From IMG/VR virus record IMGVR_UViG_3300020451_000536: DNA of 20,000 nucleotides; one strand, 5' to 3'. Position 1 is the first letter of the stretch, and each line of letters begins with the position of its first letter. Below the pieces are notes generated by a model, which was not told where the DNA came from, searched no databases, and worked only from the letters and a program-made list of their open reading frames with translations. A program made the position numbers and the translations under genes. Below, piece by piece: positions 6,501 to 20,000 of the stretch. Origin of the DNA: an uncultured virus (IMG/VR IMGVR_UViG_3300020451_000536). Lineage: Duplodnaviria > Heunggongvirae > Uroviricota > Caudoviricetes.

Positions 6501-7863
6501 TTGCAACACCAATTTTACCACCGTCTTCTGTTAAAATACTATCCGTTTCTATTCCTCTTGCAGGCCCACCAGTTGTACCAGTTGATTTTGATATTGTGAA
6601 ATTATCGTGAAGTGAAACTTCCATAAATGGTTCATCAATAGAACCAGGCGTTTCTGGAGTTAAATCTGGAGAACCAAATGCATTTTCAACTACGATTGTA
6701 TTACCAACTTCAACTGGTGTGATTGCATTATCAACATTTTCAGTTGTTCTTGGTTTTCTTATATCAATGAATGTTGGGTGACTTTTTTCTATTTCATAAC
6801 CAGCAACATATGCTTTACCTGGCGTTAGATGTAAAGTAAGTAAATCTTCTGAGGCTGCATTTCCACTATCAGTTGTAGTTCCAGATGCAAACACACCATT
6901 GTTAAGACCATCATCTAAAGTTTCTCTAGCATCTGGTTTAAAATCTCTAACAATGTAGTGTCCAGATTCATCATAAGTTCTTCTTGCAAGTGTTTCACCT
7001 AATACTGCATATTCTGTATTTCTTGATGCAGATAAAACATTACCAAGATTAACTCTCATAATCTCAACAAAGTTTGTATCATTAGTATCTGTTAAAGATA
7101 ATTTTGCAAGTGTTAATGAAATTTTTAATCTATGAGCACCAGCAGCATTTTCATTTGATGTACCAGTTGCGTTATCATATAATGTACTATCTTCTTCTGG
7201 GGTTACTAAATCTTCTGTAACTGTAAAACCAATTCTGTATGATGGTGTATTAGTATATTTGTCTAATACTAATGTTTGTTCTGAAACATTTACAAAATGA
7301 CCTCTAACAAAATATGTACCAGCTGCAACAGTTACTGCTGAACCAATCGCAGTTGCATCTGATGATTGAATAGTTAATGATTCTTGACCAGCAATAAAAG
7401 AACCGATTGCACCGTCAGCAAATAAATTTTCTCCATCAGTAAATACAAATTGTTCACCAGTTAAATCTGGATTTAAGTATTTAACAAATAAAGTTATTGG
7501 GTCATCACCACTTGCAGCTGCAGTTCCTACAACTGTTCCAGCTACACCAGATGTTGCACCAGTGACGATTTTGTCTTTATAAGATGAAATGTTTGATGTA
7601 ATGTCTGTGGTATTAAAAGTACCTTGAATTTTAACAGCATAATACTGTTTATCCATTCCAACTTCACCACCAGATATAATCGCACCTTCTTTGAAGATGT
7701 TTCTACCCATTTCTTCAACTTGATTTTGAAGTATAGATTGTTGTGAAGTTAATTCTCTAGCTTGTACTGCGAAGCCAGGTCTATATAATACTTTATGAAA
7801 ATTTTTACTTGTATCAAAATCATCATAATATGGTGATACATTTAGATTTGTTTTTTGTGCCAT
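520..7863 (-). CDS. Large virion structural protein, VrlC-like / DUF4815 family (2447 aa)
   Basis: Characteristic motifs include the N-terminus MAQKTNLNVSPYYDDFD...KVLYRPGFAVQARELT, 'LARRTYDESGHY', 'RFTMRDIGRLENRIERLE', 'DRFKSGFVVDNF', 'DPLAQSF' and the C-terminus 'FNAFQIKIRM...P.LKRLRVVA'. It lies directly downstream of gp8. Confidence 0.92.
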   Translation of the reverse strand: MAQKTNLNVSPYYDDFDTSKNFHKVLYRPGFAVQARELTSQQSILQNQVEEMGRNIFKEGAIISGGEVGMDKQYYAVKIQGTFNTTDITSNISSYKDKIVTGATSGVAGTVVGTAAASGDDPITLFVKYLNPDLTGEQFVFTDGENLFADGAIGSFIAGQESLTIQSSDATAIGSAVTVAAGTYFVRGHFVNVSEQTLVLDKYTNTPSYRIGFTVTEDLVTPEEDSTLYDNATGTSNENAAGAHRLKISLTLAKLSLTDTNDTNFVEIMRVNLGNVLSASRNTEYAVLGETLARRTYDESGHYIVRDFKPDARETLDDGLNNGVFASGTTTDSGNAASEDLLTLHLTPGKAYVAGYEIEKSHPTFIDIRKPRTTENVDNAITPVEVGNTIVVENAFGSPDLTPETPGSIDEPFMEVSLHDNFTISKSTGTTGGPARGIETDSILTEDGGKIGVARVRSFDTAANNSTVTDFLSNSADNDSQFNLGLFDIKMFTEIDFSGVVTTSEFVAGAKITGANSGATGFVHSVSSDAVYLTNVNGIFSSGEKAKSSASTQSDELVHENGTTTDLTISAVESFNISQVRQIFMNDDDSNQANFSADCVMQSRFNLTGTVSLTRNTDTLVGQNTLFNTELRAGDVLEVPTGANSATEKIVIESVTDNTTATYFCIQGGAVVTTSATTESTGTATFTATGAFTATTGSILSGSGSRTVVFKDHADNGYNGKATLTRTGNNTGTYPVNSGVANTDGASAGVAEVILISSTVSSVGAVRTRTKINDVNKNILLRKTVKKYAKSMLTVDNDGVSQTSYTFKKQFIITSNASGQIVITAGTNETFNALSNTNYTITVLDDGSGGCNDGDIIDIDDMTSSVLAGDSKTATFTDTTVFGTSSDCVVKVTATITKTSAQQKNKTNNPAHLVIVDNNGVGGGVQYGTSAHHKEISLGRTDVYKIRAIYESANSSTDPIVPQFTGTVASGTFTKGERIKGTTSGAIGSLINTGPTTFFYVLLSTTNFSDGETFTGLTSGATGTTTTVTAGDAVVTNNYVLDDGMRDSYYDISRIIRKTNVDVPIGKLLIVCDHFTHGTGDFFNVDSYSNIDYKDIPTYLATRVDTEQRQPRGRFLLHDSIDFRPTVANDDTISTVTTSSQSLSTERVNDFTFNFAQRNFSASGSIVSNIPQDNSNFQYDLDFYVGRTDSVFLTKDMEFVVKEGLDVETEITEPPKPLAENEAMKIVDVLMQPYVKEPEQDIFLRIQKNNRFTMRDIGRLENRIERLEDYTTLNLLEAETENFQVLDANGFDRFKSGFVVDNFTGHKTGDVSHQDYSCSIDYENRTLRPKYSMKNVALIEQNTNTTARTNDGYSKIGDQCMLPFTSVSTVENKFATRVESAQAAFFFTWVGVLELDPSGDEWFEVNKLPQIVINLEGNFDQILQAAGGEDALGTIWNAWETISSGVIGTTSSGWGRGGLWELVLTDQVRTGTRTFVTEVNDHKPIGNELIRQDVVPFIRSRNVTFRASKMKPKTRVYPFFDRQFIGTFCTPDGGKPGGTLTTITLPETPNWTAVGKIRFGYDNTDQANDYVAKIMSSDSEYGFNTVGQFSLHTTINIARGSNAFYSYDFTTAAEGVVGPNIQGEKFWRIQIERAVDPIHTCAGHRLYGVEFFNADATTNIDLTQFCSVVQFQNLTNPSASIDGIVPPVGAVTPGNIGVAEEMRDSVLQITYNLFTGTRTQTPESGTVQKLLPPGEDGSVFITGPTGSISGVFSIPDPNAPGNPSFKTGERQFRLTSSRINEADDVNLEGVETYAEGIYTARGFLNTIEETVTRTRNGQLFQEEVFEARQFQHRGRTLIQPWDPLAQSFIVDSVGGEFITKVDLYFQEKDERVPVTIQIREMRDGYPTEKLLPLASKTLESSEILLSDDATVATTFEFESPIYVADHSEYALVIKTDSRDYKLWISKLGDADIDSGTIVNDQPYLGVLFKSQNNRTWNAYQDEDVKFTIYRAKFDTSKTSNLVLTNAPTENRTLKENPLESLASSGVVKITHRNHHMYATTNNVNISGVSSGVNTTLNGAFGASDTSLTLTSNTGFPGSGSVRLKITVPRDSTTGAIREDEIFSGTISGSSVTSITRPTGAIAHTSGAAIELYEIDGIPLDQINRTHTAVGNVGIDSYTITTANSVATQTATATTAATATAGIKFGGSTTIATENAMMDVMKPLVSNVEYPNTKITANIRTTTATSVDGTQTSFNLQATSASRPIVLGRNYYYDVPRMVASTINETNELNSSKSFFLTLTMTSEFDNLTPVVDLDRASIAAVTHRLNNIQSSSDVYPTTLFVPATEPEGDSLEAIYLTRQVQMKSAANQINVKFDAVRPATSTIDVMFKTLRTDDSSDFNDVGYTFFNTNGQPDVTTNSSTTRDDFIEHEYSAKDLADFNAFQIKIRMRGTDSTNPPILKRLRVVATG

Positions 7864-7865
7864 TC

Positions 7866-9383
7866 TTAAAACTCAACTATGATTTTAACATCCTCTGTTT
7901 GGTCAGATGCTCGTGAAATAGGTCTTCTATTTTCTATATAAATTATGTCTCCACTATCTGGGTGCATTTCTGGATTTGCATATCCACTTGAAAATGCGAT
8001 ACTATCAACTGTTTCAGAACTAGTAGAAGACGGTGTTCCAGATGCACTAGAGTCTGCACCAGATATTGCATTTGCACCAGAAAATAAAACTGTATTACTT
8101 GCAGTATTGACACCATAGTTTGTAAATCTTTCTTGTTGATAATATAAAATTTTATTTGTTGCATCCCATTCAACAACTCTACCTACTGCACCAGTAGTTG
8201 CTTGAGTTATTTTTTCATCTGCATCAAAATCTCCACTTGGTGAAGGAATATAAATTGCATATGTATTTCTTGCAGTTGAGGCAGAAAATAATGTTGAACT
8301 GTTAAACTGAGTTGGATTTTTCATAATACCAACTTGTCTGAAATCATTTGCAACTGTAATATCATTACCTTCTTCTTGTTCAAACTTTGTGTTTAAAATT
8401 ACAAAGTGTCCACCTAATTCTTCTACTGCATCGTGTCCGTGTCCAACTTGAGGTGATATAATTGGAGTTATAGTTCCAGCAGTTGCAGAGTTCCAAGTTG
8501 ATAGAGTAGAACCACTGATTAAAGATGTTGCACCAGTGTCTGTATAAACATTAGTTCCTGCTAAATCTACGGTTGCAAAAGTATACTTTGAACCACTAGC
8601 TTGAACTGATGATACACCAGTTTCACCAAATCTTGTAATTACATTTGAACTCACAACAACTTTAAGTATTGCACCACTTCCATCACCAGCAACCTTTACA
8701 TAATAAGTTCCGTCTGGATAACCACTACCTTGACTTGTTACTAAGAAAGTATCAATCGGAGCACCATTAAAAGGTGCAGAGTCTGAACTTGTTGTTACTG
8801 CACCAGACGATACAGTTGAGTCTGTTGCGACTGCCATAAAATCAGTTGTCAAAAACTTATCTACTTGAGTAGTTGTCAATGTGTACATATATTGTAAATA
8901 ATATCCACCAACAAATTGTTTTACTGGGGAAGTAAAAGTAGGTTCAGTTGAAAGTGCAATTTTTACTCCAGAAGAATTTAGGTTATATAAAACTTTATAA
9001 ACTCTAAAATCTGAAGTTATGAAAAAAAATGTAGAATCAAAAAGATTACTTGCACCAGTTTGATTTGAAGGATTAGCTGCACTGATGTTATGTTCGTACA
9101 TATCATAAGTAGTACCAGATGTATATGTTCTTCTAGGAACACCTCTTGATACATCAGAAGCTGCAATCGCATTTGCACCTAACATTGAGTCCCATCTATA
9201 ATTTTCTGATGTGATATCATCTACTGGAGTTGGTGGAGAAGTATCACTTCCACCAGAAGTTCCACTAGTAAAAGGAGTTGATTTTCCTACAAACATATAA
9301 TAGTTTTCGTTTGTTTCAGAAAATGATTCCTCAAACTGAGCGGCGTTTGTTTGTCTAAATTTTTCTGTAATAATCGCAGCCAT
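7866..9383 (-). CDS. gp8: Baseplate wedge subunit, T4 gp8-like (505 aa)
   Basis: Motifs 'MAAIITEKFR', 'YYMFVGK', 'GTTYDMYEH', 'DFRVYKVLYN', 'GHGHDAVEELG', 'NDFRQVGIMKNP' and the C-terminus 'SGDIIYIENRRPISRASDQTEDVKIIVEF' are typical of marine T4-like gp8. An AGGA RBS lies upstream. Confidence 0.92.
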   Translation of the reverse strand: MAAIITEKFRQTNAAQFEESFSETNENYYMFVGKSTPFTSGTSGGSDTSPPTPVDDITSENYRWDSMLGANAIAASDVSRGVPRRTYTSGTTYDMYEHNISAANPSNQTGASNLFDSTFFFITSDFRVYKVLYNLNSSGVKIALSTEPTFTSPVKQFVGGYYLQYMYTLTTTQVDKFLTTDFMAVATDSTVSSGAVTTSSDSAPFNGAPIDTFLVTSQGSGYPDGTYYVKVAGDGSGAILKVVVSSNVITRFGETGVSSVQASGSKYTFATVDLAGTNVYTDTGATSLISGSTLSTWNSATAGTITPIISPQVGHGHDAVEELGGHFVILNTKFEQEEGNDITVANDFRQVGIMKNPTQFNSSTLFSASTARNTYAIYIPSPSGDFDADEKITQATTGAVGRVVEWDATNKILYYQQERFTNYGVNTASNTVLFSGANAISGADSSASGTPSSTSSETVDSIAFSSGYANPEMHPDSGDIIYIENRRPISRASDQTEDVKIIVEF

Positions 9384-9412: not shown

Positions 9413-9706
9413 TTATGATGGTTCTGTTGGCCAAGTAACTTTATTTACCTTGTCTTCAGTATCTAATCCATTGGTCAAGTCTCTTAAACTTTGTCTATAA
9501 GTTTTCCAATCAGAACTCATAGTTACATCAGAGTTTGCTCTCCAATCTGATTCACTTAATTTATTATTTCTATCTTTTCTTAAACCAGCAATAGCTCTAT
9601 CGTAAGCTCCTTTTGCCCACTCTACATCTCTTGCTTCAAGTTCTTTTATTTCTGAATCGGTCAAAGGTATTTTTTCACCATTAACCATTTTGTGCGTGTA
9701 TGCCAT
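9413..9706 (-). CDS. Tail fibre assembly chaperone-like protein (Phage_tail_APC-like, 97 aa)
   Basis: It has the pattern 'LRKDRNNKLSESDW...WKTYRQSLRDLT...VTWPTEPS'. It follows a fibre-like gene and has an AGGAGA RBS overlapping the upstream TAG. Confidence 0.85.
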   Translation of the reverse strand: MAYTHKMVNGEKIPLTDSEIKELEARDVEWAKGAYDRAIAGLRKDRNNKLSESDWRANSDVTMSSDWKTYRQSLRDLTNGLDTEDKVNKVTWPTEPS

Positions 9707-9715
9707 TAGTATCTC

Positions 9716-10732
9716 CTAAATGATTCCGTATATTTTTACATTACCGAAAACATTATACCCAGTTGTGGTATAATCCATATTACCACCACCGCCACCGCCA
9801 CTAACTTTGATTTCAAAAGATACATCAGTAAAATTATTATTATTTTGTAATATATTATGACCTTTTTCAAAATAATCAGTATTGCTGCTTCCGTGCATTA
9901 TTGTTTCAGAAATGGAGAAAGCTGGTATGTCAGTAGTTTGAAAATTATGAAACTCGCAAGTACCCATAGCTAACATATCTTCATTATTAGAAAAGTTTTG
10001 ACAAAATACTAATAAGTCATCACTATCACCATATACAACAGAATTAGTAGTTTGGTCTGCTCTAATATAATGTAGTGTATGTTTAACAGTTGATGATGTT
10101 CCAGTTGATAATGTACCACCAGTACCTAATCTTACAATCAATCCACAGTTAGAATTATTTGCTTGACTTTCTGTTTCTTTAACTGTGTATATTGCTTTAT
10201 ATGTTCTATATGTGGAAGAAAAAATATTTTGAAAATGAAAAGGTTGTGCAGCTGCAGAACCAGATGCAACATCTTTTTCTTCTAACAAAACTAATCCACC
10301 AGCTGCACCAAATTCCAATCCAGTTCCACCAGTATTAACTTTAACTGCTTGTCCAGCAGAACCTAAAGTATTAATATTAAACAATCCAATTTTATCTACA
10401 AAAGTTTCGTCAAATAATATTCTGTGATTTGCATTTGAACTAGAACCATCAGTACCATCTAAAACTAAAAAATCACCAGCATCTGCTGTTCCATTTGTAG
10501 AATTTAAAATAATAGAATCTGATGAAATATTATTTACTGCAGCTGATTGTAACTCATCACGAGTAACTGCATTAGCAGATATTTCTGTTGAACCAACTGC
10601 ATCATTTGGAATTTTTGCAGAGGTGACATTATCATCTAAAATCTTTGCAGTGGTGACAGCATTATCTGCAATCTGTGTTGTTGCAATCGTTCCAGATTGT
10701 ATTGCACCTACTGGTATTTTACTTATTGGCAT
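9716..10732 (-). CDS. Short tail-fibre-like protein (338 aa): 10-aa shaft repeats plus C-terminal head domain
   Basis: It has about five tandem 10-aa repeats (IADNAVTTAK/ILDDNVTSAK/IPNDAVGSTE/ISANAVTRDE), a 'GSAGQAVKVNTGGTGLEFG' fibre linker and a C-terminal domain ending VKIYGII. A chaperone gene follows it. Confidence 0.75.
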   Translation of the reverse strand: MPISKIPVGAIQSGTIATTQIADNAVTTAKILDDNVTSAKIPNDAVGSTEISANAVTRDELQSAAVNNISSDSIILNSTNGTADAGDFLVLDGTDGSSSNANHRILFDETFVDKIGLFNINTLGSAGQAVKVNTGGTGLEFGAAGGLVLLEEKDVASGSAAAQPFHFQNIFSSTYRTYKAIYTVKETESQANNSNCGLIVRLGTGGTLSTGTSSTVKHTLHYIRADQTTNSVVYGDSDDLLVFCQNFSNNEDMLAMGTCEFHNFQTTDIPAFSISETIMHGSSNTDYFEKGHNILQNNNNFTDVSFEIKVSGGGGGGNMDYTTTGYNVFGNVKIYGII

Positions 10733-10934: not shown

Positions 10935-12500
10935 TTATTTCCATTGTAAAGACACTCCGTGTATTTTATTTGCACCTTCAAGAGATGAACCAACAATTTT
11001 CCAACGAAGTCTAACTTGTGGTGATGCACTTCCAGTCAATGGAGTAGAACCACTGAAAATTTTAATTCCACTAGAACCAGCAGAATATCCTTCATCTGTT
11101 AATGTAACAGAATTAAATGTTGTATTATCTCTAGTTACACTTGCACTAATCTCTGAATTTATATCATCACCTAATTCTGCAAAAATTACAATCCGTGCTG
11201 TACTTGGTGCTGTATTTGCAGTAAATGTGTCTGATATTAATGTCATACTTGAACTTGAAACTTGTTGTTGTGATGCAGATACGATAACAATTCCAGAACC
11301 ACCAGTACCACCAGTGCCTGGGGGCCCACCGCCTGTACCACCATTACCAGTATTTGCAGATGCATCTGCACCAGCACCACTAACACCTTCTGGGCCACTA
11401 TTACCACCAGTTGCATAAGTTACTGGACTAGAACCATCTGCAATAGTATATGCAAGACCAACACCGCCTGGATTTAATGAATTTTGTGGTTCAGTTGGTA
11501 AGTTATCATTACCTATTGCACCAGCTCCTCCACCGCCTCCACCGTCTCTGTGTCCATCTGGTGGAGTTTGTGGTGTTGCTTGTGAACCAGCACCACCTCT
11601 GTTTCCAAAACCACCAGGCGAGTTTACTGGTAATACACTTGGTGATAACCCAGTTGGGTGATTTGAAACTTGTGTACTTGTTCCAATGTAATGTGGGCCT
11701 TGAGGTGACGGAGTAGTTGGTAAACCAGTTGCTGGTAAGGGTAATGCATCTGAACCAAATTTTTCACCAACTGGTTGATATGCTGGAACAACACCCATAT
11801 CTGGAACTTTACCACCAATACCACCACCAGAACCACCAGGCCTTCCTAAAAAATGACTTTGTGGAAAACCTTGTGAATCTCCACCTTTACCTCCACCTTC
11901 ACCTACCAAGGGTAAAGGACTTGGGTGATTAAAACTTGAGTCTGCACCATTGTAACCAAATGTTGGGTGAGGGCCACCAGGCGCAGGCGTTTCTCCCATA
12001 CCAGCACCAACAACATATGCATAACTATTACCACCAGTAACTGGATAATTTGGATAATAAATTAAACCACCAGCTCCACCTCCACCAGTTCCATCTGATG
12101 CACTTCCACCTCCAGCACCCCCACCACCTACAATGAGAACATTAACATTTGTAGTTGTTGGTTCTGCTGTATAGTTTCCACTACCAGAAGTATAAGAAGT
12201 TATTTCGGTTGTATTAGGAACAGGCCCTGCTGATTTATTTTCAAAGAAATCTGAAGTTGCATCATATATTGCGTTTGAATTTTCAGCAGTATCTACACCA
12301 GTATTGTCGTGAAATTCGTCTACTACACCATCTATTAAATTGAACACAGTCAAACCATCATTAACTGCGACTTTGAAACCTAATACACCAATGTTAAATG
12401 CATTACTATCTATTGTACCAGATGGATTTAAACTTGTTTGTAATTTTGCTTCAGTGATATCACCATCTTTGATATTAATACCATCAACTCTTGTTGTCAT
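10935..12500 (-). CDS. Glycine/proline-rich virion fibre-like protein, paralog 2 (521 aa)
   Basis: It has a glycine-rich core ('VLIVGGGGAGG...GGGGAGGLIY', 'GGGGGAGAIG', 'ANTGNGGTGG...GGSGIVIV'). Its N- and C-terminal domains clearly align with those of 12504..14156. Confidence 0.8.
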   Translation of the reverse strand: MTTRVDGINIKDGDITEAKLQTSLNPSGTIDSNAFNIGVLGFKVAVNDGLTVFNLIDGVVDEFHDNTGVDTAENSNAIYDATSDFFENKSAGPVPNTTEITSYTSGSGNYTAEPTTTNVNVLIVGGGGAGGGSASDGTGGGGAGGLIYYPNYPVTGGNSYAYVVGAGMGETPAPGGPHPTFGYNGADSSFNHPSPLPLVGEGGGKGGDSQGFPQSHFLGRPGGSGGGIGGKVPDMGVVPAYQPVGEKFGSDALPLPATGLPTTPSPQGPHYIGTSTQVSNHPTGLSPSVLPVNSPGGFGNRGGAGSQATPQTPPDGHRDGGGGGGAGAIGNDNLPTEPQNSLNPGGVGLAYTIADGSSPVTYATGGNSGPEGVSGAGADASANTGNGGTGGGPPGTGGTGGSGIVIVSASQQQVSSSSMTLISDTFTANTAPSTARIVIFAELGDDINSEISASVTRDNTTFNSVTLTDEGYSAGSSGIKIFSGSTPLTGSASPQVRLRWKIVGSSLEGANKIHGVSLQWK

Positions 12501-12503
12501 AAC

Positions 12504-14156
12504 TTATCCCCATTGTAATGCAACACCGTGTATTTTATTTTCAGCTGTTTGATTACTTCCAACTATTTTCCAACGAACTTGTACTTGAGGACTTGCAGTT
12601 CCAGTTAATGGAGTAGAACCAGTAAATACTTTTGTACCACTACTTCCACTTACATAACCAGTGTCTGTTAATGTGATTGCATTAAAGGTTGTGTTATCTC
12701 TCGTTGCAGAAACTGTTACATCTGTATTTAAATCATCACTTATCTCTGCAAATAAAACTATTCTTGCTTTTGTTGGTACTGAGTTTGCAGTAAATGTATC
12801 TGATATCAATGTGCTACTTGCAGATGTAGCTAAACTTTCCATTTCTAATACGACTATTTGTCCACTACCACCATCACCGCCTGGAATATTATAATAAGAG
12901 GGGCCTGAACCACCTGGCCCACCACCGTGTGAACCACCTCCACTACCAGTGTTCACAGCACCAGCATATCCAGTATCAGCTGCTAAAGTATGTGTGTTCT
13001 GTGGATTGTGGTTTCCATCACCACCACCACCTTCACCACCTTCTGTTTCACCGCCTGGTGCATATCTACCACCAGAACCACCACCAGCAACCTTACCGTC
13101 TGGATGACCATAACCAGCAGGAAACCAATTTAATTGTGGGTTAGGAGGCCCTACTGCAATACCATCACCACCAACACCAGCATTTGCACCACTAGCAGCT
13201 GTTCCGACTGCACCAGCACCACCTCCACCTCCACCAGCATAACCTGGCCCAGAGGCATATAAAAGACCACCGTCAAATCCTTGTTGTGTGAAATCTCCAG
13301 CAGGGTGTCTATTTTCTCCAGTTTCACCTTCACCTACTGTACCATGTTCATATCCAGCACCCCCACCAGAACCACCAGGCAATCCGTCTACTAATTCTTG
13401 GCCAGGAAAATCTGGGTCAGATGCAGATGGGTCAAAAGTATATCCGTGTCCACCAGCACCACCACCTTCTGCTGTAATTGTTGGGCCGAAAGTTGAATCA
13501 TTGCCTGGTCGTGAGTGTCTTCCGCCTGGATATTGAGGATTTGTTAATGAAAGAGGAAAGATAGTTGGAGCATCGCCAGGAAAATATGGTTGTATTGCTG
13601 TTGGATAAGATGGGTGATAAGGATGAAATCTACCTTCACCACCAGCACCAACATTTACTGCAACACTAGCACCACCAGTTACTGGAACATCAGCATCTAA
13701 AACGACACCACCAGCACCACCACCGCCGCCTCCACCAATACCCATTCCACCACCACCACCAGCACCACCACCAGCGATTGCAAAAACTTTAACGACAGTT
13801 GTAGTTGGTTCATTTGAAAATGTACCAGGCCCAGTTGATGTTATTTGGGTTAAACCTGCTTGTGGAGATGGAATAGGATTAGGGCCATCTAAATTTGAAT
13901 AGAAATCAGAAGTTGCATCATATTGATTGGTTACATTTTCTGCTGTGTCTATACCACTTTCATTGTTAAATTCATCAACAATACCATCAACTAAATTAAA
14001 GATTGTCAAACCTTCATTGACTGCAATCTTAAATCCTAATACACCAATATTAAAAGCATTACCATCTGTTGCACCACTTGACTTTGCAGCTGCATTTAAA
14101 TCATCTGTTGTGACTGAACCATCGGTAATATTGTCACCAGTAATTTTTGTAGTCAT
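12504..14156 (-). CDS. Glycine/proline-rich virion fibre-like protein, paralog 1 (550 aa)
   Basis: It has the same architecture as 10935..12500: 'NAFNIGVLGFKIAVNEGLTIFNLVDGIVDEF', a Gly-rich core, and the C-terminus 'RWKIVGSNQTAENKIHGVALQWG'. Confidence 0.8.
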   Translation of the reverse strand: MTTKITGDNITDGSVTTDDLNAAAKSSGATDGNAFNIGVLGFKIAVNEGLTIFNLVDGIVDEFNNESGIDTAENVTNQYDATSDFYSNLDGPNPIPSPQAGLTQITSTGPGTFSNEPTTTVVKVFAIAGGGAGGGGGMGIGGGGGGGAGGVVLDADVPVTGGASVAVNVGAGGEGRFHPYHPSYPTAIQPYFPGDAPTIFPLSLTNPQYPGGRHSRPGNDSTFGPTITAEGGGAGGHGYTFDPSASDPDFPGQELVDGLPGGSGGGAGYEHGTVGEGETGENRHPAGDFTQQGFDGGLLYASGPGYAGGGGGGAGAVGTAASGANAGVGGDGIAVGPPNPQLNWFPAGYGHPDGKVAGGGSGGRYAPGGETEGGEGGGGDGNHNPQNTHTLAADTGYAGAVNTGSGGGSHGGGPGGSGPSYYNIPGGDGGSGQIVVLEMESLATSASSTLISDTFTANSVPTKARIVLFAEISDDLNTDVTVSATRDNTTFNAITLTDTGYVSGSSGTKVFTGSTPLTGTASPQVQVRWKIVGSNQTAENKIHGVALQWG

Positions 14157-14165
14157 TTAATTATC

Positions 14166-14963
14166 CTATACTACTAAATATCTGACACCAATCTGTACTG
14201 TATTTGCTGGTGCAGTTGTAAAAGTTAAAGTTGTACCAGACACACCATAATCGGTAGTTGGTTTTTGAACAATTCCATTCTCTGTTACGATAACACTGTT
14301 AACTGTATGTCCTGCTGTAACTGTAAATGCAGTTGTAGAACCATCACCAGTAAAATATGATGATGAATAAGTAAATGCAGCTTTAGCGTTTGTTACTGCA
14401 TCATCTTGAATTTTTGCAGTAGATATTCCACCATCACTTACAGTTCCTAAATTAACTTCGTTTGTTGTTGATAAGTGAACTACTACTATGACAGCAGATG
14501 TTCCTGGCGCAGAAGTAAAAGTTATTGTTGAACCAGATATTGAAAAGTTGGTTGTATATTTTTGAAACACACCATTTACAAATGCAATTACTGTTGATGA
14601 TGCATTAGCAGGAACTCTTGATAAACTAAATCCAGTTGTTGAATTATCACCAGTGAAAGTGTCTATTGTTGGAGTTGTATCTGTTGCAGTTCTAGATGCT
14701 ACTAATTGTTGTCTACCAAGATAAATAACAAAACATCTTACAGAGTTTGCTGGTGCAGATGCAAATGTAATTTTTTGAGAACCACTAACCATTGCAATAT
14801 CATATGCACTACCAGGCTCTTGAATAACACCACCTAAAGAAACTATGATTGAAGTTGCAGATGCCACTACATGAGTAAGTGTAAATTGTGTAGTTGAACC
14901 ATCACCAGTAAAGATGTCTTTTTCAAATGCACCAAATGAAGGTTCTTTTCCAATATATGCCAT
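14166..14963 (-). CDS. Virion structural protein with three 'FTGDGSTT.FT' beta-repeat domains (265 aa)
   Basis: It contains three ~65-aa units (FTGDGSTTQFTL...ITFASAP; FTGDNSTTGFSL...ITFTSAP; FTGDGSTTAFTV...LTFTTAP) and a MAYIG..P N-terminus, which is common in marine phage tail/baseplate proteins. Confidence 0.8.
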   Translation of the reverse strand: MAYIGKEPSFGAFEKDIFTGDGSTTQFTLTHVVASATSIIVSLGGVIQEPGSAYDIAMVSGSQKITFASAPANSVRCFVIYLGRQQLVASRTATDTTPTIDTFTGDNSTTGFSLSRVPANASSTVIAFVNGVFQKYTTNFSISGSTITFTSAPGTSAVIVVVHLSTTNEVNLGTVSDGGISTAKIQDDAVTNAKAAFTYSSSYFTGDGSTTAFTVTAGHTVNSVIVTENGIVQKPTTDYGVSGTTLTFTTAPANTVQIGVRYLVV

Positions 14964-15284
14964 TTACGATTCCTTTGGATATTTCTTTTTTATAGCATCA
15001 ACTTTCTCTTTCCACTTGTCAATACCGTTTTCTGTAATATATTCTATCTGTGATTCTAATGAACCATATTCTGATTTTCTACTATCTATTGCAACTTGAT
15101 TTTTTTCTTCTTTATCTGCATCAGATTCTACAGCTTTAAGTTGAGTATCTGTTGGTTTAGTTTTTTCTTCAATATTCCATTCAGCAATATATACACCTTT
15201 ACCATCATCTTGAAGTGTTACTTCAAAAGGAAAGTTTACTTCTCTACCCATATATTTTTCTATTTTTGTTTTTAAAGATGCCAT
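14964..15284 (-). CDS. XkdW-like small tail-associated protein / putative fibre chaperone (106 aa)
   Basis: 'VTLQDDGKGVYIAEWN...KPTDTQL' resembles XkdW-type proteins. The C-terminus is 'RKSEYGSLESQIEYI...WKEKVDAIKKKYPK'. It follows the C1q-like gene. Confidence 0.7.
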   Translation of the reverse strand: MASLKTKIEKYMGREVNFPFEVTLQDDGKGVYIAEWNIEEKTKPTDTQLKAVESDADKEEKNQVAIDSRKSEYGSLESQIEYITENGIDKWKEKVDAIKKKYPKES

Positions 15285-15288
15285 AATA

Positions 15289-15810
15289 TTATCCTATTCT
15301 AAATGCTCCAAAAAAAGTATGAGGTGTTGTTGCATTACCATAAGCTGTGGGAGTTCCACTTGCTAAGCCTGGATATGAATAAAACTCAATGTAATCACTA
15401 GAGCCATTCATATCAAAAAGACCAGAAGCTATTATGTTACCACCATTACCACCATTATTTCTTAAATCGCTATAACCATATACTCTTGAATTACTTGATG
15501 TTCCATTCTTAAAAATTTCATTTAACATCCAATTTACAGTTCCTTGACCCTCACTAGCAATATCGCAATTTGCAAATACATAATATTTACCAGCAGTTTG
15601 TGGTGTAAACCTATAATTTGATGAATTATCGTATTGACCAGCAGAATCATAAACTTCAGTATTGCATAAAAGTTTATTACGAGCATTATTAGTCAATGTT
15701 TGATTTGCACTTAAATATGCAAAAAATGATGGAGTTGCACTTGTTATTAAAGGTGCAGCTGAACCAATAATCGTATTTGTATTTAAATTATCTACTGTTA
15801 ATGTACCCAT
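15289..15810 (-). CDS. C1q/TNF-like domain protein, putative receptor-binding head (173 aa)
   Basis: 'PSFFAYLSANQT...LCNTEVYDSAGQYDNSSNYRFTPQTAGKYYVFAN...DYIEFY...TFFGAFRI' follows the C1q globular-domain pattern (F.A..., FT.P..G.Y.F, terminal F.GF). Confidence 0.75.
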   Translation of the reverse strand: MGTLTVDNLNTNTIIGSAAPLITSATPSFFAYLSANQTLTNNARNKLLCNTEVYDSAGQYDNSSNYRFTPQTAGKYYVFANCDIASEGQGTVNWMLNEIFKNGTSSNSRVYGYSDLRNNGGNGGNIIASGLFDMNGSSDYIEFYSYPGLASGTPTAYGNATTPHTFFGAFRIG

Positions 15811-15811
15811 T

Positions 15812-16441
15812 TTATTTTATTATCCCATATACTGATATATTATTTACTGTAATATTTCCACTAGCAAAATATAATGTAAATCCGTTTACAACTAATGCTC
15901 TTTGTGCAAGTATAAATCCACCGTTAACAAAACCAAATTGTGTGTCACCAGAATTTGTATTCATAGAAGCGTGTCCGTGAAGTTGACAAGCGTGTGTTGA
16001 ACTGTTAACATTTAAAAGATGAAAAGAATTAGTTTGACTTTCTCCAGTAGCATTTCCTACTGATTGGTATGCTAAAGGTATATAAGCTGCACCAGTGTGA
16101 TGATACCCATATGTTGAACTACTACCAACCGAAGTTTCATAAGCATAATAACTATTTGTGTTTTGAGAACCACCAGTATTAAAATTTAATCTTAATTGTT
16201 GAGTATCAGTTGCTGGACTTGCGTTTAAAGTTACAAAGTAATCGTCATAAGTAGAATTAATATAAGTTTCATCTATTTCAAAAGTAGCTGCAGCTGTGCC
16301 ACTACCAACAAAAAGTTTAATCATACCCACACCAGCACTTCTTAATGCTGCTGGAGTCAGTAAACCACTTTGTGCAACACCATCTGTGATAAGTGCAGTA
16401 CCATCTCTTTTTTGTAAGTTGTTTACTTTTAATGTACCCAT
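15812..16441 (-). CDS. Short fibre/head-domain protein with MGTLKV leader (209 aa)
   Basis: It has a beta-rich C-terminal domain ('INSTYDDYFV...FTLYFASGNITVNNISVYGIIK') similar in pattern to the C-terminus of the 338-aa protein. An AGGA RBS lies upstream. Confidence 0.75.
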   Translation of the reverse strand: MGTLKVNNLQKRDGTALITDGVAQSGLLTPAALRSAGVGMIKLFVGSGTAAATFEIDETYINSTYDDYFVTLNASPATDTQQLRLNFNTGGSQNTNSYYAYETSVGSSSTYGYHHTGAAYIPLAYQSVGNATGESQTNSFHLLNVNSSTHACQLHGHASMNTNSGDTQFGFVNGGFILAQRALVVNGFTLYFASGNITVNNISVYGIIK

Positions 16442-16451
16442 TTTATTTTCC

Positions 16452-16820
16452 TTAACTAGGTTCTGTTGGCCAAGTAACTTTTTTTACTTTGTCAACAGTA
16501 TCTAATCCTTTTGTTAAATCTCTCAGTTCTTCTCTATACACTTGCCATTTACCTTTAGTTGTACTATCCATTCTAGAGTCACTTATGTCTGGCATTTGTG
16601 TCCAATCACTTTCTCTTAAAAGTCTATTTCTTATTGGTCTTATTTCATCTAATGCTTCACGAAGTTCACCCTCATCTTTTTTTGCTAATAATTCTGATTC
16701 TGTTGGTTTCGTTGTTGATTTGTCTAACCAAGTTAAATTTTTATAATCAGTTTGGTCATTACCCACTAACTCCCATAAACAACCAGGCCAATAGTATTCT
16801 AATAATTTTGCTATGTTCAT
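16452..16820 (-). CDS. Tail fibre assembly chaperone-like protein (Phage_tail_APC-like C-terminus, 122 aa)
   Basis: It contains 'IRPIRNRLLRESDWTQMPD...WQVYREELRDLT...VTWPTEPS' and is paralogous to 9413..9706. Confidence 0.85.
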   Translation of the reverse strand: MNIAKLLEYYWPGCLWELVGNDQTDYKNLTWLDKSTTKPTESELLAKKDEGELREALDEIRPIRNRLLRESDWTQMPDISDSRMDSTTKGKWQVYREELRDLTKGLDTVDKVKKVTWPTEPS

Positions 16821-16824
16821 ATTA

Positions 16825-17361
16825 CTAACCTTTTATCTCTTGAAGAGTTACAGAATTTAAAGCCATTGTTCCATTATATTTTTCTGAACTTCTTCTTTGT
16901 ACATAAATTGCTGAAGACCCTGCCATACAACCAGCTCTAATTGAATATGTTACTGCTGATGTTGAACTAGGTGAATCTAAAACATTAATATTACATTGGT
17001 CAGGCTGACCACCACCTTCAGCATTACTATCGTGTACAGTTAATATACAAGTGCTATCTCTAAAAACAGCTATTCCCCATCCATTAGCAGCAGAACTTGA
17101 ACCCTCAATAGAACCAGTTATAAAAATTTTATTTGAAGTAGAGCTCGGTGTTATTGCTTGTGAGTAAATTTCTGTTCCTTCTGAAACTGTGGGAGTTGTA
17201 TCATCATCTGGTATTGAAGAAGTAAAAGTTGCTTTTGCAACTGCAACTGTTATTTGTTGTAGAACTATTCCTGCTCCACTAACACTTGAACTAAAAACAC
17301 CATCAGTAAGAATAGCAGTTCCGTCTTCTTTTTGTATATTATCTACTTTTAATGTACCCAT
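16825..17361 (-). CDS. Short fibre/head-domain protein with MGTLKV leader (178 aa)
   Basis: 'GIVLQQ...SIPDDDTTPTVSEGTEI...ITPSSTSNKI...LDSPSSTSAVTYSIR...VTLQEIKG' resembles a small uncharacterised marine phage tail-associated family. A chaperone gene follows it. Confidence 0.75.
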   Translation of the reverse strand: MGTLKVDNIQKEDGTAILTDGVFSSSVSGAGIVLQQITVAVAKATFTSSIPDDDTTPTVSEGTEIYSQAITPSSTSNKIFITGSIEGSSSAANGWGIAVFRDSTCILTVHDSNAEGGGQPDQCNINVLDSPSSTSAVTYSIRAGCMAGSSAIYVQRRSSEKYNGTMALNSVTLQEIKG

Positions 17362-17370
17362 AAAATCTAC

Positions 17371-17757
17371 CTAAAGTATAACAACATCTCCCTCTATTGT
17401 CAATGTATTACCAGAAGTAACCGTAAGAGGCCCTACTGCTACTGCATTGACTCCTTGAGGAATTGTAAGTGTTTCATTTAAAAATTTAGTGTTTGCTCTA
17501 AACTGTGCTGATTGTCCAAAAGTTTGGGGAATGGCATTTGCATCTAGGACATCATTATATTGAACTTTATCACCAGCATTAGAACTAGAATTGTCTGTTC
17601 CATCAAGAATTAAATTATCACCAGCATTTGAACCTCCACCATCTGTTCCGTCAAGTATGACATTTACAGATGCACCGAGACTAACTGACGCATTAATCTT
17701 TGCAGTTGTGATGGCACCGTCTGCGATACCATCAGTTGGAAGTTGAAAGACAGCCAT
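17371..17757 (-). CDS. Short fibre/adaptor-like protein (128 aa)
   Basis: It has an 'IADGAITTAKI' repeat, two LDGTD..SNAGD repeats, and the C-terminal motif 'TLTIPQGVNAVAVGPLTVTSGNTLTIEGDVVIL'. Confidence 0.75.
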   Translation of the reverse strand: MAVFQLPTDGIADGAITTAKINASVSLGASVNVILDGTDGGGSNAGDNLILDGTDNSSSNAGDKVQYNDVLDANAIPQTFGQSAQFRANTKFLNETLTIPQGVNAVAVGPLTVTSGNTLTIEGDVVIL

Positions 17758-17765
17758 AATTTATC

Positions 17766-18677
17766 CTATGATATGGTTGCACCGTTTACTGAAACTACAT
17801 TCCAGTTTGAACCGTTGTAAATTAATACTACACTTTCACCAATCGCATTAAATAAAATACTTGTTGAAACATTGGTGGAATTTAAGTTACCATTTGATTG
17901 TGTCATTGTTGCATTGTTACCAGCAACAGTCATAATGATTATTTTTCTTTGACCAACAAAACGACCAGCAGAAAGAGTTAGTGATGCAGTACCACTAGCT
18001 GTATTTAAAAGTGATACTTCAACATCATCATCTAGTGCATTAGAGCCACCAGCACCAGTTATGGTTTCAGTTGATGAACCTTGAAGTGTTGATGTTTTGT
18101 TTGGTAAAGTAACTGTGACATTACCAGAGTACACAGCGTGAGCTGGAGATTCTATTGCAACATAGTGTGCATTTGAACTCTCACAATATAATCTCACTTG
18201 TGATTTTGAACCACTATTCTTTACATCAATAACACCAGTTGTAAAAATAATATCATCATCACCATTTATTTTAAAGTGAATAGTATCATCTGTGTCAGCA
18301 GTGATAGATGTATCAGCATCTGCATCTAAAACTAATTCTTTACCATTAAGGTCAAGTTTAGTTGCAGTCATCTGAAATATATCAGCACCACCTATTTTGA
18401 AATCTATTGTATCATCTGAATCAGCAGTTATTGAAGTATCTGCATCAACATCTAATATTAGTTCAGAACCATTAAGGTCTAAACTTGTAGCGATTACTGG
18501 GGCTGTTAATGTAACTACGGTTGCAGTTGAACTCATCCCAGAAGTTAAAGCAGAACCAGTACCTAATAATGTGTACAGTTCTACAAAGTTATCGTTTACC
18601 TTGTCACCTCCAGCTCTGAGGGTATCGCCTGTCCCATCATTCGCTGAACTTCCAAGTCCGATAGATTGATATGCCAT
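17766..18677 (-). CDS. Baseplate/tail-fibre connector with T4 gp9/gp10-type N-terminal domain (303 aa)
   Basis: The N-terminus 'MAYQSIGLGSSANDGTGDTLRAGGDKVNDNFVELY' matches the gp9/gp10 N-terminal motif (G...DGTGD.LR.GG.K.N.NF.ELY). An AGGAGA RBS lies 7 nt upstream of the ATG. Confidence 0.85.
   Translation of the reverse strand: MAYQSIGLGSSANDGTGDTLRAGGDKVNDNFVELYTLLGTGSALTSGMSSTATVVTLTAPVIATSLDLNGSELILDVDADTSITADSDDTIDFKIGGADIFQMTATKLDLNGKELVLDADADTSITADTDDTIHFKINGDDDIIFTTGVIDVKNSGSKSQVRLYCESSNAHYVAIESPAHAVYSGNVTVTLPNKTSTLQGSSTETITGAGGSNALDDDVEVSLLNTASGTASLTLSAGRFVGQRKIIIMTVAGNNATMTQSNGNLNSTNVSTSILFNAIGESVVLIYNGSNWNVVSVNGATIS
18231..18482 (-). repeat. Two-copy 126-nt (42-aa) tandem repeat inside the gp9/gp10-like gene
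   Basis: The copies are LDLNGSELILDVDADTSITADSDDTIDFKIGG and LDLNGKELVLDADADTSITADTDDTIHFKING. The sequence 'cattaaggtc' recurs at 18344 and 18470. Confidence 0.85.
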
Positions 18678-18702
18678 TCCTATATCTCCTATTTTCTACT
18701 TT

Positions 18703-18714: not shown

Positions 18715-20000
18715 TTAAGTTGCAGTATTATCAAAAGTTAATCCCATATCTGATAATGTTGCATCAAATCTAAATACACTTGCATCAAATGTAGTTGTTA
18801 TGTTTGCAGTTTGTGAAACACTAAAGTCTGCATCAAATCTTGCATAATCACCACCTAGTGTATCATCAAATTTGTATAGTGTTTGTGAGAAGTCTAGTGG
18901 ATTAGTTAATCCAGCAAAACCTACATCAAACTTAACACTATTTGAGTCAAATGTTTTATGTGTCTCAGAGAAGTCTAAGAAGTCTTGACCCAATGTATCT
19001 ATTGTCTTACCACCAGCATTATCTTCATCAAATGTTTGTCTAATATCATCAAATGTTCTGAAGTCCATATCAAATGTTTGGAACATTCCAGTTTTAGTAA
19101 TTCTTAACTCACCTCTTGGTGGTACATTAATTCTTGTAGTAAATGCAGATGGTGGAATAAAGTTTCTACTTTCATCAAAGAACCTTGTCGTGGAATCAAA
19201 GTTCTCTTCATCAGTATCACTAAATCCACCAGTAACAGATACTTCATTTATTTTAACATCTTTAAATTGGTCAATGGTAAAGTATGTATCTACATTTTCA
19301 TCATCACTTAAAAATCCCTCTTGCATAAATCCATATTTCGCAAGGTTAACTAAGAAAGGTGAAAAAGATGATGATGTTGCACCACCCATAGTAATAGAAA
19401 CAGAACTTGATAATGTTACCTCTCTTTTACCAGATGGTAATAATGTTCCACCACCACTTGTATTTTCTTGATAACCAATAGCTGGATTTGGATTTAAAGT
19501 TGTTCCGTCACTTGTTGTTCCTAATCTACGACCAAATACAGTTGTGAATAGAGTTGTAAGTGTAGATGCAAGTTCTGGAGTAAATGTTTCGGTATCACCC
19601 ACATATCCAGAAATTTCAGAACCAGTAGGTATTGTAAGTTTTGCATTGACTAATGATGCAATAGTAACTTGTCCGAATACTGCAAATCCAGCAGGGTGTG
19701 TTGCAGTTCTAATACTATCACGCCACTCATTAATTGATTCACCTATTTTTACAACATATGAAAAATCTTGATAGTAATATGAATCTTGGATTCTCATAGT
19801 ATCTTCAGATACAAATCCTTTTGAACCTATGAAGTTACCAGTTGTTCTACCAGTTGCACCAGTTGTTAGTTCACCATCAGCAGTCAAACATTGAACTACT
19901 ATTGCACTTGCAGTACCAGTTGTAATTAAATCGCCCTCTTCTGGTGTATGTAATGAGTTTATTTTTACAGTTTGTTTTCCACTATCAAAAGATACAACCG
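18715..20000 (-). CDS. gp7: Baseplate wedge initiator, T4 gp7-like, C-terminal part (true start is outside the window)
   Basis: It contains the hallmark 'RIQDSYYYQDFSYVVKIGESINEWRDSIRTATHPAGFAVFG'. The frame stays open upstream of the TTG at 19887 to the window end (...VVSFDSGKQTVKINSLHTPEEGDLITTGTASAIVVQCLTADG). Confidence 0.8.
   Translation of the reverse strand, partial: VVSFDSGKQTVKINSLHTPEEGDLITTGTASAIVVQCLTADGELTTGATGRTTGNFIGSKGFVSEDTMRIQDSYYYQDFSYVVKIGESINEWRDSIRTATHPAGFAVFGQVTIASLVNAKLTIPTGSEISGYVGDTETFTPELASTLTTLFTTVFGRRLGTTSDGTTLNPNPAIGYQENTSGGGTLLPSGKREVTLSSSVSITMGGATSSSFSPFLVNLAKYGFMQEGFLSDDENVDTYFTIDQFKDVKINEVSVTGGFSDTDEENFDSTTRFFDESRNFIPPSAFTTRINVPPRGELRITKTGMFQTFDMDFRTFDDIRQTFDEDNAGGKTIDTLGQDFLDFSETHKTFDSNSVKFDVGFAGLTNPLDFSQTLYKFDDTLGGDYARFDADFSVSQTANITTTFDASVFRFDATLSDMGLTFDNTAT

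Follow-up and report, generated by a model that had tools for sequence, protein, structure and literature searches.

That a conserved scaffold can carry exchangeable, separately encoded receptor binders is already known in phages; what differs in the locus described here is the parts. The gp38 protein of T-even phages is a single monomeric glycine-rich adhesin, and in phages K1-5 and SP6 one adaptor carries two tailspikes, an 'anchor-branch' arrangement also found in Klebsiella phages with two receptor-binding proteins (dual-RBP phages). In the part of the Ackermannviridae study drawn on here, several RBPs are held on a conserved scaffold in a branched tailspike complex (PMC11414711), and the corresponding part of a report on the dual-RBP Klebsiella phages describes a multi-RBP adaptor system (PMC13579863). 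A third account, again in the part drawn on, deals with the chain-like fibres of podophages GP4, VP1 and A1002, whose separate proteins of 140-171 amino acids (aa) dock by beta-sheet augmentation (PMC13730344). Here we analyse a stretch of 20,000 nucleotides (nt), hereafter the window, from an uncultured virus of the Caudoviricetes (IMG/VR record IMGVR_UViG_3300020451_000536), in which the gene of a short stub fibre, the adaptor, is followed by three genes with a common N-terminal leader. Our comparisons suggest that these genes encode a split fibre, probably joined end to end by a leader that acts as a plug and a C-terminal domain of the adaptor that acts as its socket.

Results

Three dissimilar genes share an N-terminal leader

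The initial annotation of the window had singled out three minus-strand genes that open with MGTL(K/T)V(D/N)N, and the open reading frames (ORFs) and sequences are indeed as it gave them. We refer to the bodies of the three proteins as heads and number them in the order in which they follow the adaptor; between heads 1 and 2 lies a chaperone gene that was absent from the items named in that annotation. The region is laid out as follows.

17371-17757, minus strand: 128-aa adaptor (stub fibre), ending ...GPLTVTSGNTLTIEGDVVIL
17374-17502, minus strand: putative socket domain, adaptor residues ~86-128, FRANTKFLNETLTIPQGVNAVAVGPLTVTSGNTLTIEGDVVIL to the stop
16825-17361, minus strand: putative head 1, 178 aa, MGTLKVDNIQKEDGTAILTDG..., containing ITPSSTSNKI; starts 9 nt downstream of the adaptor
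17299-17361, minus strand: predicted plug of head 1 (position 1), residues 1-21, then a short linker
16452-16820, minus strand: 122-aa tail-fibre assembly chaperone, PF16778 Phage_tail_APC at 49.3 bits (cut-off 26.6)
15812-16441, minus strand: putative head 2, 209 aa, MGTLKVNNLQKRDGTALITDG..., ending YGIIK
16379-16441, minus strand: predicted plug of head 2 (position 2), residues 1-21, with the invariant QKRDGTALIT
15289-15810, minus strand: putative head 3, 173 aa, MGTLTVDNLN...
15781-15810, minus strand: predicted plug of head 3 (position 3), short, MGTLTVDNLN
14964-15284, minus strand: 106-aa XkdW-like protein, PF09636 XkdW at 37.1 bits; adjoins head 3

A degenerate DNA pattern for the leader has three matches in the window, all at these three starts, against an expected 0.03, and none of 200 shuffled sequences reached three matches. 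The first 24 nt are almost identical across the three genes, synonymous positions included. At the protein level M1, G2, T3, L4, V6 and N8 are invariant, overall identity is 22-25%, and when the 209-type and 178-type families are compared as profiles, residues 1-19 alone align (probability 91%, E 9e-7). The description of a shared leader on dissimilar bodies, made earlier from the letters of the window, thus stands. In the AlphaFold2 (AF2) monomer model of the 209-aa protein, the predicted local distance difference test score (pLDDT) is 46-54 over leader residues 1-30 and about 90 in the head.

The adaptor ends in a conserved domain found at the C-terminus of other phage fibres

The adaptor is made up of an N-terminal I.DGAITTAKI-type segment, two LDGTD...SNAGD repeats and, over its last ~45 residues, a conserved C-terminal domain that we name the socket. 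A 338-aa fibre encoded elsewhere in the window (9716-10732) carries, in its N-terminal part, a homologue of the N-terminal half of the adaptor (E 2e-8), and the adaptor matches phrog_5342, 'tail fiber protein', at profile positions 3233-3311 of 3319. The socket also forms the extreme C-terminus of gp17 (715 aa) of the T7-like cyanopodophage P-SSP7, and ends both the 3,219-aa fibre of cyanomyophage S-WAM2 and a 115-aa protein (_193) of the OM43 myophage Melnitz. A scan of IMG/VR that gave at least 76 loci was the source of the 57 C-termini from which we built a socket profile (A5). The residue pairs N-A and G-P and a T are invariant across this alignment. We define the family by a C-terminal motif, F-R-x-N...T-I-P-x-x-x-N-A-x-x-x-G-P-[LI]-T-[VI]-x-S-G-x-T-[LV]-T-[IV]...[IV][LV], that stands at the very end of the protein. 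The 128-aa adaptor belongs to the family, with an A5 match at E 3.7e-22 that reaches its last residue, and is the single socket gene that the profile finds in the window. Searched against 1.84 billion cluster representatives, A5 gave 9,632 matches at E<=1e-3 and 5,759 at E<=1e-10, and in 148 of the 150 best hits (proteins of 60-665 aa) the match ends no more than one residue from the C-terminus.

No Pfam family covers the socket: 16 of the 18 long members scanned were without any hit, and the other two had Mtd_N at the N-terminus in one case and a spurious hit in the other. An NCBIfam search found nothing, and the 30 ESM-Atlas clusters nearest to the socket are all labelled 'hypothetical protein'. 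A single 60-aa member leads to 180 records of isolated phages, 158 of them Synechococcus, Prochlorococcus or 'Cyanophage' records, and those listed are annotated mostly as hypothetical, structural or tail fibre proteins. The socket and plug family is thus large and apparently uncurated in the databases searched. A literature search for socket or plug returned no description in openly readable papers, subscription-only papers and supplements lying outside its scope; what we saw of a pelagimyophage genomics paper mentions only hypervariable host-recognition regions, and a 2026 cryo-electron microscopy preprint on P-SSP7, in the part drawn on here, models gp17 for its first 117 residues only and leaves the distal fibre unresolved. 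Within that literature, and with no socket entry in Pfam, NCBIfam or the PDB, the system is undescribed, as the initial annotation had proposed in naming it a candidate.

Sockets are followed by leader-bearing genes in distant phages

The gene order of the window recurs in phages of other types. In P-SSP7, gp17 is followed by four 'tail fiber' genes of ~190-213 aa that start MPITLNGSG, MSQLKLTAD, MATLNATNL and MSRIIVDAI, with an XkdW-like gene among the genes after gp17, and the S-WAM2 fibre is followed by three genes of ~182-190 aa (MSTIRCNEV, MSTLKVNSI, MSQIRTNTI) and an XkdW-like gene; XkdW-like genes close the cluster in both phages. The 115-aa socket protein of Melnitz is flanked by genes starting MASILKVNEL, MASTLTVDTI and MSTLAVNTI and by a chaperone gene. 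In Melnitz, ~29 kb separate the module from the gp9/10-like baseplate gene, and P-SSP7 is a podovirus with no adjoining gp9/10 homologue; what stays next to the plug genes throughout is therefore the socket and not the baseplate.

We quantified this adjacency from both sides. The socket-side survey covered the IMG/VR loci, at least 76 in number and 66 when made unique by socket end and next-gene start. An ORF starts within 60 nt downstream in 62 of the 66; the other four comprise three in which the sequence runs out within ~50 nt of the socket stop and one with no ORF called within 60 nt. The next gene carries the leader motif in 36 of the 62 by a strict pattern and in 46 by a loose one, as against 6 and 16 of the 643 other ORFs of the same loci, and the loci scored as having none include starts that look leader-like by eye (MASILNVDQI, LSEIRATTIS). 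In the window itself, the gene 9 nt downstream of the socket starts MGTLKVDNIQ and is of plug type. The number of plug genes per socket varies, with 0, 1, 2, 3 and 4 in 7, 22, 25, 9 and 3 of the unique loci, respectively. Socket and leader subtypes also go together: all nine '...GDTSG / MSTISAGT' leaders follow sockets ending ...R(W/L)V(V/I)(L/I) or ...NWVIL, and of the 35 sockets that lack tryptophan near the end, 25 precede a leader of the MSTLxVxxI type. This co-variation, uncorrected for shared ancestry, fits the co-evolution of contacting parts. The plug-side survey was a socket-blind DNA scan for MST[LF]xVxN[IM] starts, with 79 loci among the matches listed; for 26 of the 47 real-looking ORFs among them, a socket at the level of A5 lies upstream on the same strand within 5 kb.

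Some proteins combine the two elements and little else. Mini-proteins with a plug-like start and a socket, of 71 aa (L125:3654-3869) and 99 aa (L130:3119-3418), are directly flanked by a socket-ended fibre on one side and the following plug gene on the other, and proteins of the same make-up of 108 aa occur within socket-plug clusters (L075:5909-6235, L079:5907-6233). Such proteins may be stackable connectors, serving as extension or coupling pieces.

Two further arrangements were seen at such loci. In two cyanomyophage-like contigs (L078:3689-5990 and L088), three tandem paralogues of 249-254 aa, all starting MS(S/V/T)L.VN.(I/L), stand behind socket-ended fibres of more than 1,227 aa. A separate family of ~108-121 aa (MANTFKLKTKANVGV...LTIMEMT) adjoins plug-type fibre genes (L171:3637-3963, L196, L209, L223 and, on the minus strand, L144:5551-5916) and resembles gp24 of HTVC010P, which is annotated 'virion structural protein'.

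Heads are exchanged behind position-specific leaders

The exact leader pattern was found at 58 IMG/VR loci, many of them sister contigs that share one gene order: the wedge protein is followed by the gp9/10-like protein and the adaptor, then by the three leader genes, the XkdW-like gene and a 265-aa fibre. All 10 contigs with the complete region have exactly three leader genes, and the type of leader is fixed by position, MGTLKVDN(I/L)Q(K/T)E(D/S)G... at position 1, MG(T/I)LKV..(L/I)QKRDGTALIT... at position 2 and MGTLTVDNLN... at position 3. When eight sister contigs are compared with the window, identity is 80-97% for the adaptor and 60-100% for the ten residues that open the leader; the head at the same position is in most cases 17-47% identical, that is, a different head.

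Individual heads can be followed from one setting to another. A 178-type head (85% identical) stands at position 3 in L025, behind the MGTLTVDNLN leader and with its PF16778 chaperone still following, and the head of the 338-aa fibre (50% identical) stands at position 1 in L026, behind MSTLRVDNIQKENG. Podophage HTVC010P has the same three head types behind other N-termini (MAYIG.EP..., MALVKYNN...). In another myophage neighbourhood (L004:4001-4849, also L022, L054 and L061), whose genes resemble by eye those of a baseplate hub, PAAR and gp25-type proteins, a relative 58% identical to head 3 begins with the same MGTLTVDNLN; the XkdW-like gene beside it is 81% identical to that of the window (L004). 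Chaperones follow the type of head and leaders follow position. Since the head moves in L025, L026 and HTVC010P, head and chaperone together form the mobile unit, and the leader is part of the scaffold of the phage. We also considered the adaptor as a 'rope with three docking sites', provided by its two shaft repeats and its C-terminus, and set this aside, the L026 adaptor lacking 8 residues of the first repeat and still being followed by three heads.

Contigs from four RNA runs (three studies) cover parts of 14900-18700, and three of them span the adaptor stop and the start of head 1 (X15 17022-17438, X17 17296-17535, X18 17243-17588). Contigs from RNA libraries are no proof of transcription and we do not take them as evidence of expression, nor are the stretches that they leave uncovered informative. 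Contigs of related phages in these libraries follow the window up to the boundary between leader and head and then diverge. X17 has such a loose end before 17296 and X16 has one on each side of 15781-15811, both being single contigs of low depth. These breaks fit leaders that are conserved islands between variable cassettes.

The predicted heads and their assembly factors

The type of head 1 is recognised by the pattern 'ILQ...ITPSSTSNK...LDSP...EIKG'. It scores 23.1 bits (E 6.6e-5) against PF05475, the Pgp3 C-terminal domain, short of the gathering cut-off of 25, and matches Pgp3 in the PDB (4jdn) at E 0.017; it is probably TNF/Pgp3-like, in the sense of a resemblance only. Podophage LME-1 has a homologue of head 1 as the last ~170 residues of its tail fibre orf22 (PDB 9efk; E 0.0035 with the single sequence and 6.6e-30 with the family profile); of this fibre, in the part of the structural paper drawn on here, the proximal part alone is modelled.

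The AF2 model of head 2 is a beta-sandwich with a mean pLDDT of 82.6. Its Foldseek matches in the PDB, at low template modelling (TM) scores of 0.3-0.37, are to the beta-sandwich domain of a levanase (8aa2_E, E 2.2e-4), the carbohydrate-binding module of NanA, legume lectins and galectins; in BFVD it has 144 viral matches at E<=0.001, with TM up to 0.75 and long tail fibres among them. The modelled fold resembles a lectin-like beta-sandwich.

For head 3 the initial annotation had proposed a C1q-like domain, a label that is backed only indirectly. Searched against Pfam, PF00386 C1q included, the protein gives no hit even at E<=5; in the nearest ESM-Atlas clusters, PF00386 is found on 14-15% of members, and among its tblastn relatives (seven Pelagibacter phage records and one Methylophilales phage record, 29-44% identity) one is annotated as a C1q globular-head-like protein. 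Head 3 is probably C1q-like. The XkdW-like protein next to it is a probable assembly factor travelling with this head: its gene and podophage HTVC010P share 74% DNA identity over 294 bases (window 14964-15301; L144 3460-3790), which points to a recent exchange of a head and chaperone cassette between myophage and podophage, probably within the same host group.

Head families of this kind occur elsewhere as the distal ends of long fibres, and one such fibre is encoded in the window, followed by its own chaperone.

9716-10732, minus strand: 338-aa unsplit fibre, adaptor-like N-terminal shaft fused to a YG-type head
9413-9706, minus strand: 97-aa chaperone after the 338-aa fibre, PF16778 at 46.4 bits (cut-off 26.6)

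The head of this fibre (residues 146-338) shares 50% identity with a 226-aa protein found at position 1 in contig L026 and bearing the MSTLRVDNIQKENG plug. Compared directly with the 209-aa head by BLASTP it gives a non-significant E of 0.11; we relate the two because of the family alignment (A7) and the L026 intermediate. On this sequence evidence the phage appears to keep fused and split versions of one design.

Gene content of the window and likely host

All genes of the 20-kb window are on the minus strand, and by their matches they make up the baseplate and fibre module of a T4-like myophage. Apart from the genes given above it contains the following.

18715-19998, minus strand: baseplate-wedge-like protein
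17766-18677, minus strand: 303-aa protein with T4 gp9/gp10-like N-terminus (PF07880, PF25692, phrog_677)
7866-9383, minus strand: gp8-type baseplate wedge protein (phrog_438, E 3e-122)
520-7863, minus strand: 2,447-aa DUF4815 protein

The 303-aa protein belongs to PF07880 T4_gp9_10_N, with 30.8 bits over residues 4-40 (gathering cut-off 25), has 28.1 bits to PF25692 Phage_depo_C and matches phrog_677, 'baseplate wedge tail fiber protein connector'. Its gene is directly upstream of the adaptor gene in every sister contig, a synteny that makes it the likely attachment point of the adaptor on the baseplate.

Two glycine-rich paralogues of 521 and 550 aa adjoin each other at 10935-14156 (minus strand) and have their N- and C-terminal ends in common. 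Both match phrog_2295, the 521-aa protein also matches PF21722 Gly_rich_2, and the pair is 77-87% identical in sister contigs. G+C content is 0.44-0.46 over these two genes and 0.31-0.35 in their surroundings. Both resemble fibre or adhesin proteins whose middle part varies.

With these two genes excepted, the G+C content of the window is 31-37%. Its closest named relatives, by DNA and by protein, are phages of Pelagibacter, of Methylophilales and of marine cyanobacteria, and the nearest record, an 18.8-kb fragment (G001), has the same three leaders. The source is most likely a pelagimyophage-like marine phage, and its hosts would probably be SAR11 bacteria.

Discussion

Our study suggests that the locus encodes a split fibre, joined end to end by an N-terminal plug that enters a C-terminal socket and bearing swappable heads, an explanation that we consider probable. 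The initial annotation had already proposed a split fibre with interchangeable tips, and the comparative evidence has since come to its support: the socket family, its adjacency to leaders, the co-variation of the two, the head swaps, the fused heads and the mini-proteins. Two domain families lie at opposite protein ends and adjoin each other in phages as distant as P-SSP7, S-WAM2 and Melnitz, and head cassettes are exchanged behind the leaders. The 128-aa protein would be a short stub of three chains, which the gp9/gp10-like protein probably fixes to the baseplate, as synteny suggests, and the last ~45 residues of the stub would form a small beta-rich socket. The three downstream proteins would be receptor-binding heads that are almost shaftless (TNF/Pgp3-like, lectin-like beta-sandwich and probably C1q-like), and the plug would be the first ~10 residues of each (MGTLxVxN), predicted to be disordered in the protein alone. 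The plug would dock on the socket, most likely by strand addition or by extending beta-helix-like turns, a mode suggested by the positions of the two elements at protein ends, the strand-rich model and the disordered leader in the model of the 209-aa protein. Each chaperone would serve the folding of particular heads, as it goes with the type of head whatever the position. Heads could be swapped by recombination at the leader with virion assembly undisturbed, because plug and socket stay constant and the heads are separate genes with chaperones of their own, and one virion would thereby carry several receptor specificities. We infer a physical contact between plug and socket, a trimeric stoichiometry, the anchoring on the gp9/10-like protein and the sharing of one socket by three heads. 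The plug-socket system appears, from its distribution, to be widespread in aquatic phages and not peculiar to the source phage.

Several observations weigh against this explanation. The survey of gene neighbourhoods proposed in the initial annotation bears it out from the socket side, where leaders follow 36 of 62 sockets, and less so from the plug side, where 21 of the 47 leader ORFs among the matches listed have no A5-level socket upstream. Eleven of the 21 were inspected: in seven, the ORF just upstream has a related C-terminus below threshold (for example ...DIESGSTLSVGNGVFFSIIDI), and in four there is no socket-related C-terminus just upstream. Plugs without a recognisable socket nearby thus do occur, and none was found in the 34,987-base fragment (23% complete) of L004 that carries the relative of head 3. 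Against PDB sequences the socket has nothing below E 0.23, the best match being 21 residues of 9ki1, 'baseplate protein gp47'. Adjacency and co-variation are confounded by shared ancestry and conserved synteny. Finally, there is one socket gene for three position-specific plugs, and simple competition for one site does not explain this.

This last point leads to stronger versions of the split fibre. We hold it rather unlikely that the system is a universal stackable connector of ocean phages, T4-like myophages and T7-like podophages of cyanobacteria, of OM43 and probably of SAR11 bacteria, complete with extension pieces made of plug and socket alone, and at the same time builds fixed 1:1:1 tips that are tri-specific (TNF-like, lectin-like and C1q-like) on every fibre of this myophage. 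The tri-specific tip taken by itself, in which the three leaders would co-assemble 1:1:1 on each adaptor trimer or each adaptor chain would take one head, finds support in the gene order: exactly three position-fixed leader genes in all ten complete sister contigs, genes that abut or overlap (L015: 2752-3375, 3375-4001, 4001-4513) and a single socket gene in the window. The arrangement of three equal-length paralogues of 249-254 aa in L078 and L088 would suit a heterotrimer, and positions 1 and 2, with E and R at residue 12, could pair. Yet the three heads are of different sizes and come from unrelated families, and a mixed head is unlikely, as domains of the TNF and C1q types as a rule fold only from three chains of one kind. 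The number of plug genes, moreover, ranges from 0 to 4 per socket over the 66 loci, so that 'three' would be particular to this lineage, and we judge this tip unlikely.

The leaders might instead dock on some other virion protein, such as the gp9/10-like 303-aa protein, the 265-aa fibre or a baseplate wedge, the socket then being a folding or capping element and the adjacency a matter of fibre-gene order. Such a partner would accommodate both the 21 of 47 leader ORFs, among the matches listed, without a profile-level socket upstream and the relative of head 3 that sits with its XkdW gene in another neighbourhood, on a 35-kb fragment without a socket. It is quite improbable, however, in view of an adjacency that persists in Melnitz, where the module is detached from the baseplate genes, and in the podovirus P-SSP7, of subtypes of socket and leader that co-vary, and of a 71-aa protein consisting of plug and socket alone, which it explains only with difficulty. 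That the shared start merely records tandem duplication or gene conversion, or works at the RNA level in the initiation or coupling of translation, with no role in docking, would agree with the near-identical first 24 nt, synonymous positions included, and the tight packing of the genes, but is very improbable given that the bodies are not paralogues and align over residues 1-19 alone, that the leader is conserved as protein with other codons and residues (MSTL, MASTL, MATL) in cyano-, methylo- and pelagiphages, and that it stays while heads are replaced.

Pelagiphages and cyanophages are among the most abundant viruses of the ocean, and their receptor-binding proteins are mostly annotated as hypothetical. 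If the split fibre joined by plug and socket is correct, host-recognition genes could be found by a simple sequence rule, namely that one gene ends in a socket and the following one begins with a plug, in thousands of marine phage genomes and metagenomic contigs. The split fibre would also account for the movement of the same head types between myophages and podophages of a shared host, and would offer a natural plug-in point for the study of host range in laboratory pairs of marine phage and host.

Comparison with known systems

The adaptor and branch systems with several RBPs share with the present locus the presence of several binders, a conserved N-terminal docking part and a modular host range. 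They differ in their larger structured N-terminal domains and big enzymatic tailspikes and belong to enterobacterial phages, whereas here the plug has ~10 residues, the socket is a 45-aa domain and the hosts would be marine oligotrophs; no Pfam or PDB hit links the present proteins to those systems. The long tail fibre of T4 (gp34-gp35-gp36-gp37), like the fibre proposed here for a T4-like phage, consists of separate proteins, each meeting the N-end of the next with its C-end, and gp37 even starts MATLK..., which is superficially plug-like. T4 has one fixed chain of parts, in contrast to the several alternative heads here. As candidate homologues of the socket, T4 gp35 and gp36 were rejected at an hhalign probability of 0.1-0.2%.

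Another likeness is to gp38 on gp37 in T-even phages of the T2/T6/S16 type, a small, highly variable and separate receptor binder on a conserved fibre tip. In the part of the source drawn on here, it is encoded directly downstream of the fibre gene in a hotspot of modular exchange (Trojet et al. 2011, PMC3157838), as the heads are here. The present system differs from it in having one to four head genes, unrelated to each other and with probably trimeric or lectin-type folds, and in its conserved parts, a plug of ~10 residues and a socket of ~45. No Pfam family scores above cut-off on any of the three heads, the gp38-type family is not found on them in Pfam, and no gp38 chain came up in the PDB sequence searches.

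Neither the three heads nor the socket, searched against PDB sequences, returned the chains of GP4 gp80, VP1 gp11 or A1002 gp40/41, the podophages whose fibres are built by beta-sheet augmentation. As far as the cited part of the work goes, these phages resemble the locus as proposed here in mounting small fibre proteins with genes of their own on a carrier, and A1002 has two kinds of them (PMC13730344). In that same part, the small proteins of GP4, VP1 and A1002 are dimers arranged in series along a 'rope' (PMC13730344), whereas here the heads would be trimeric TNF/C1q-type or lectin-like, and the docking element lies at the extreme C-terminus of its carrier.

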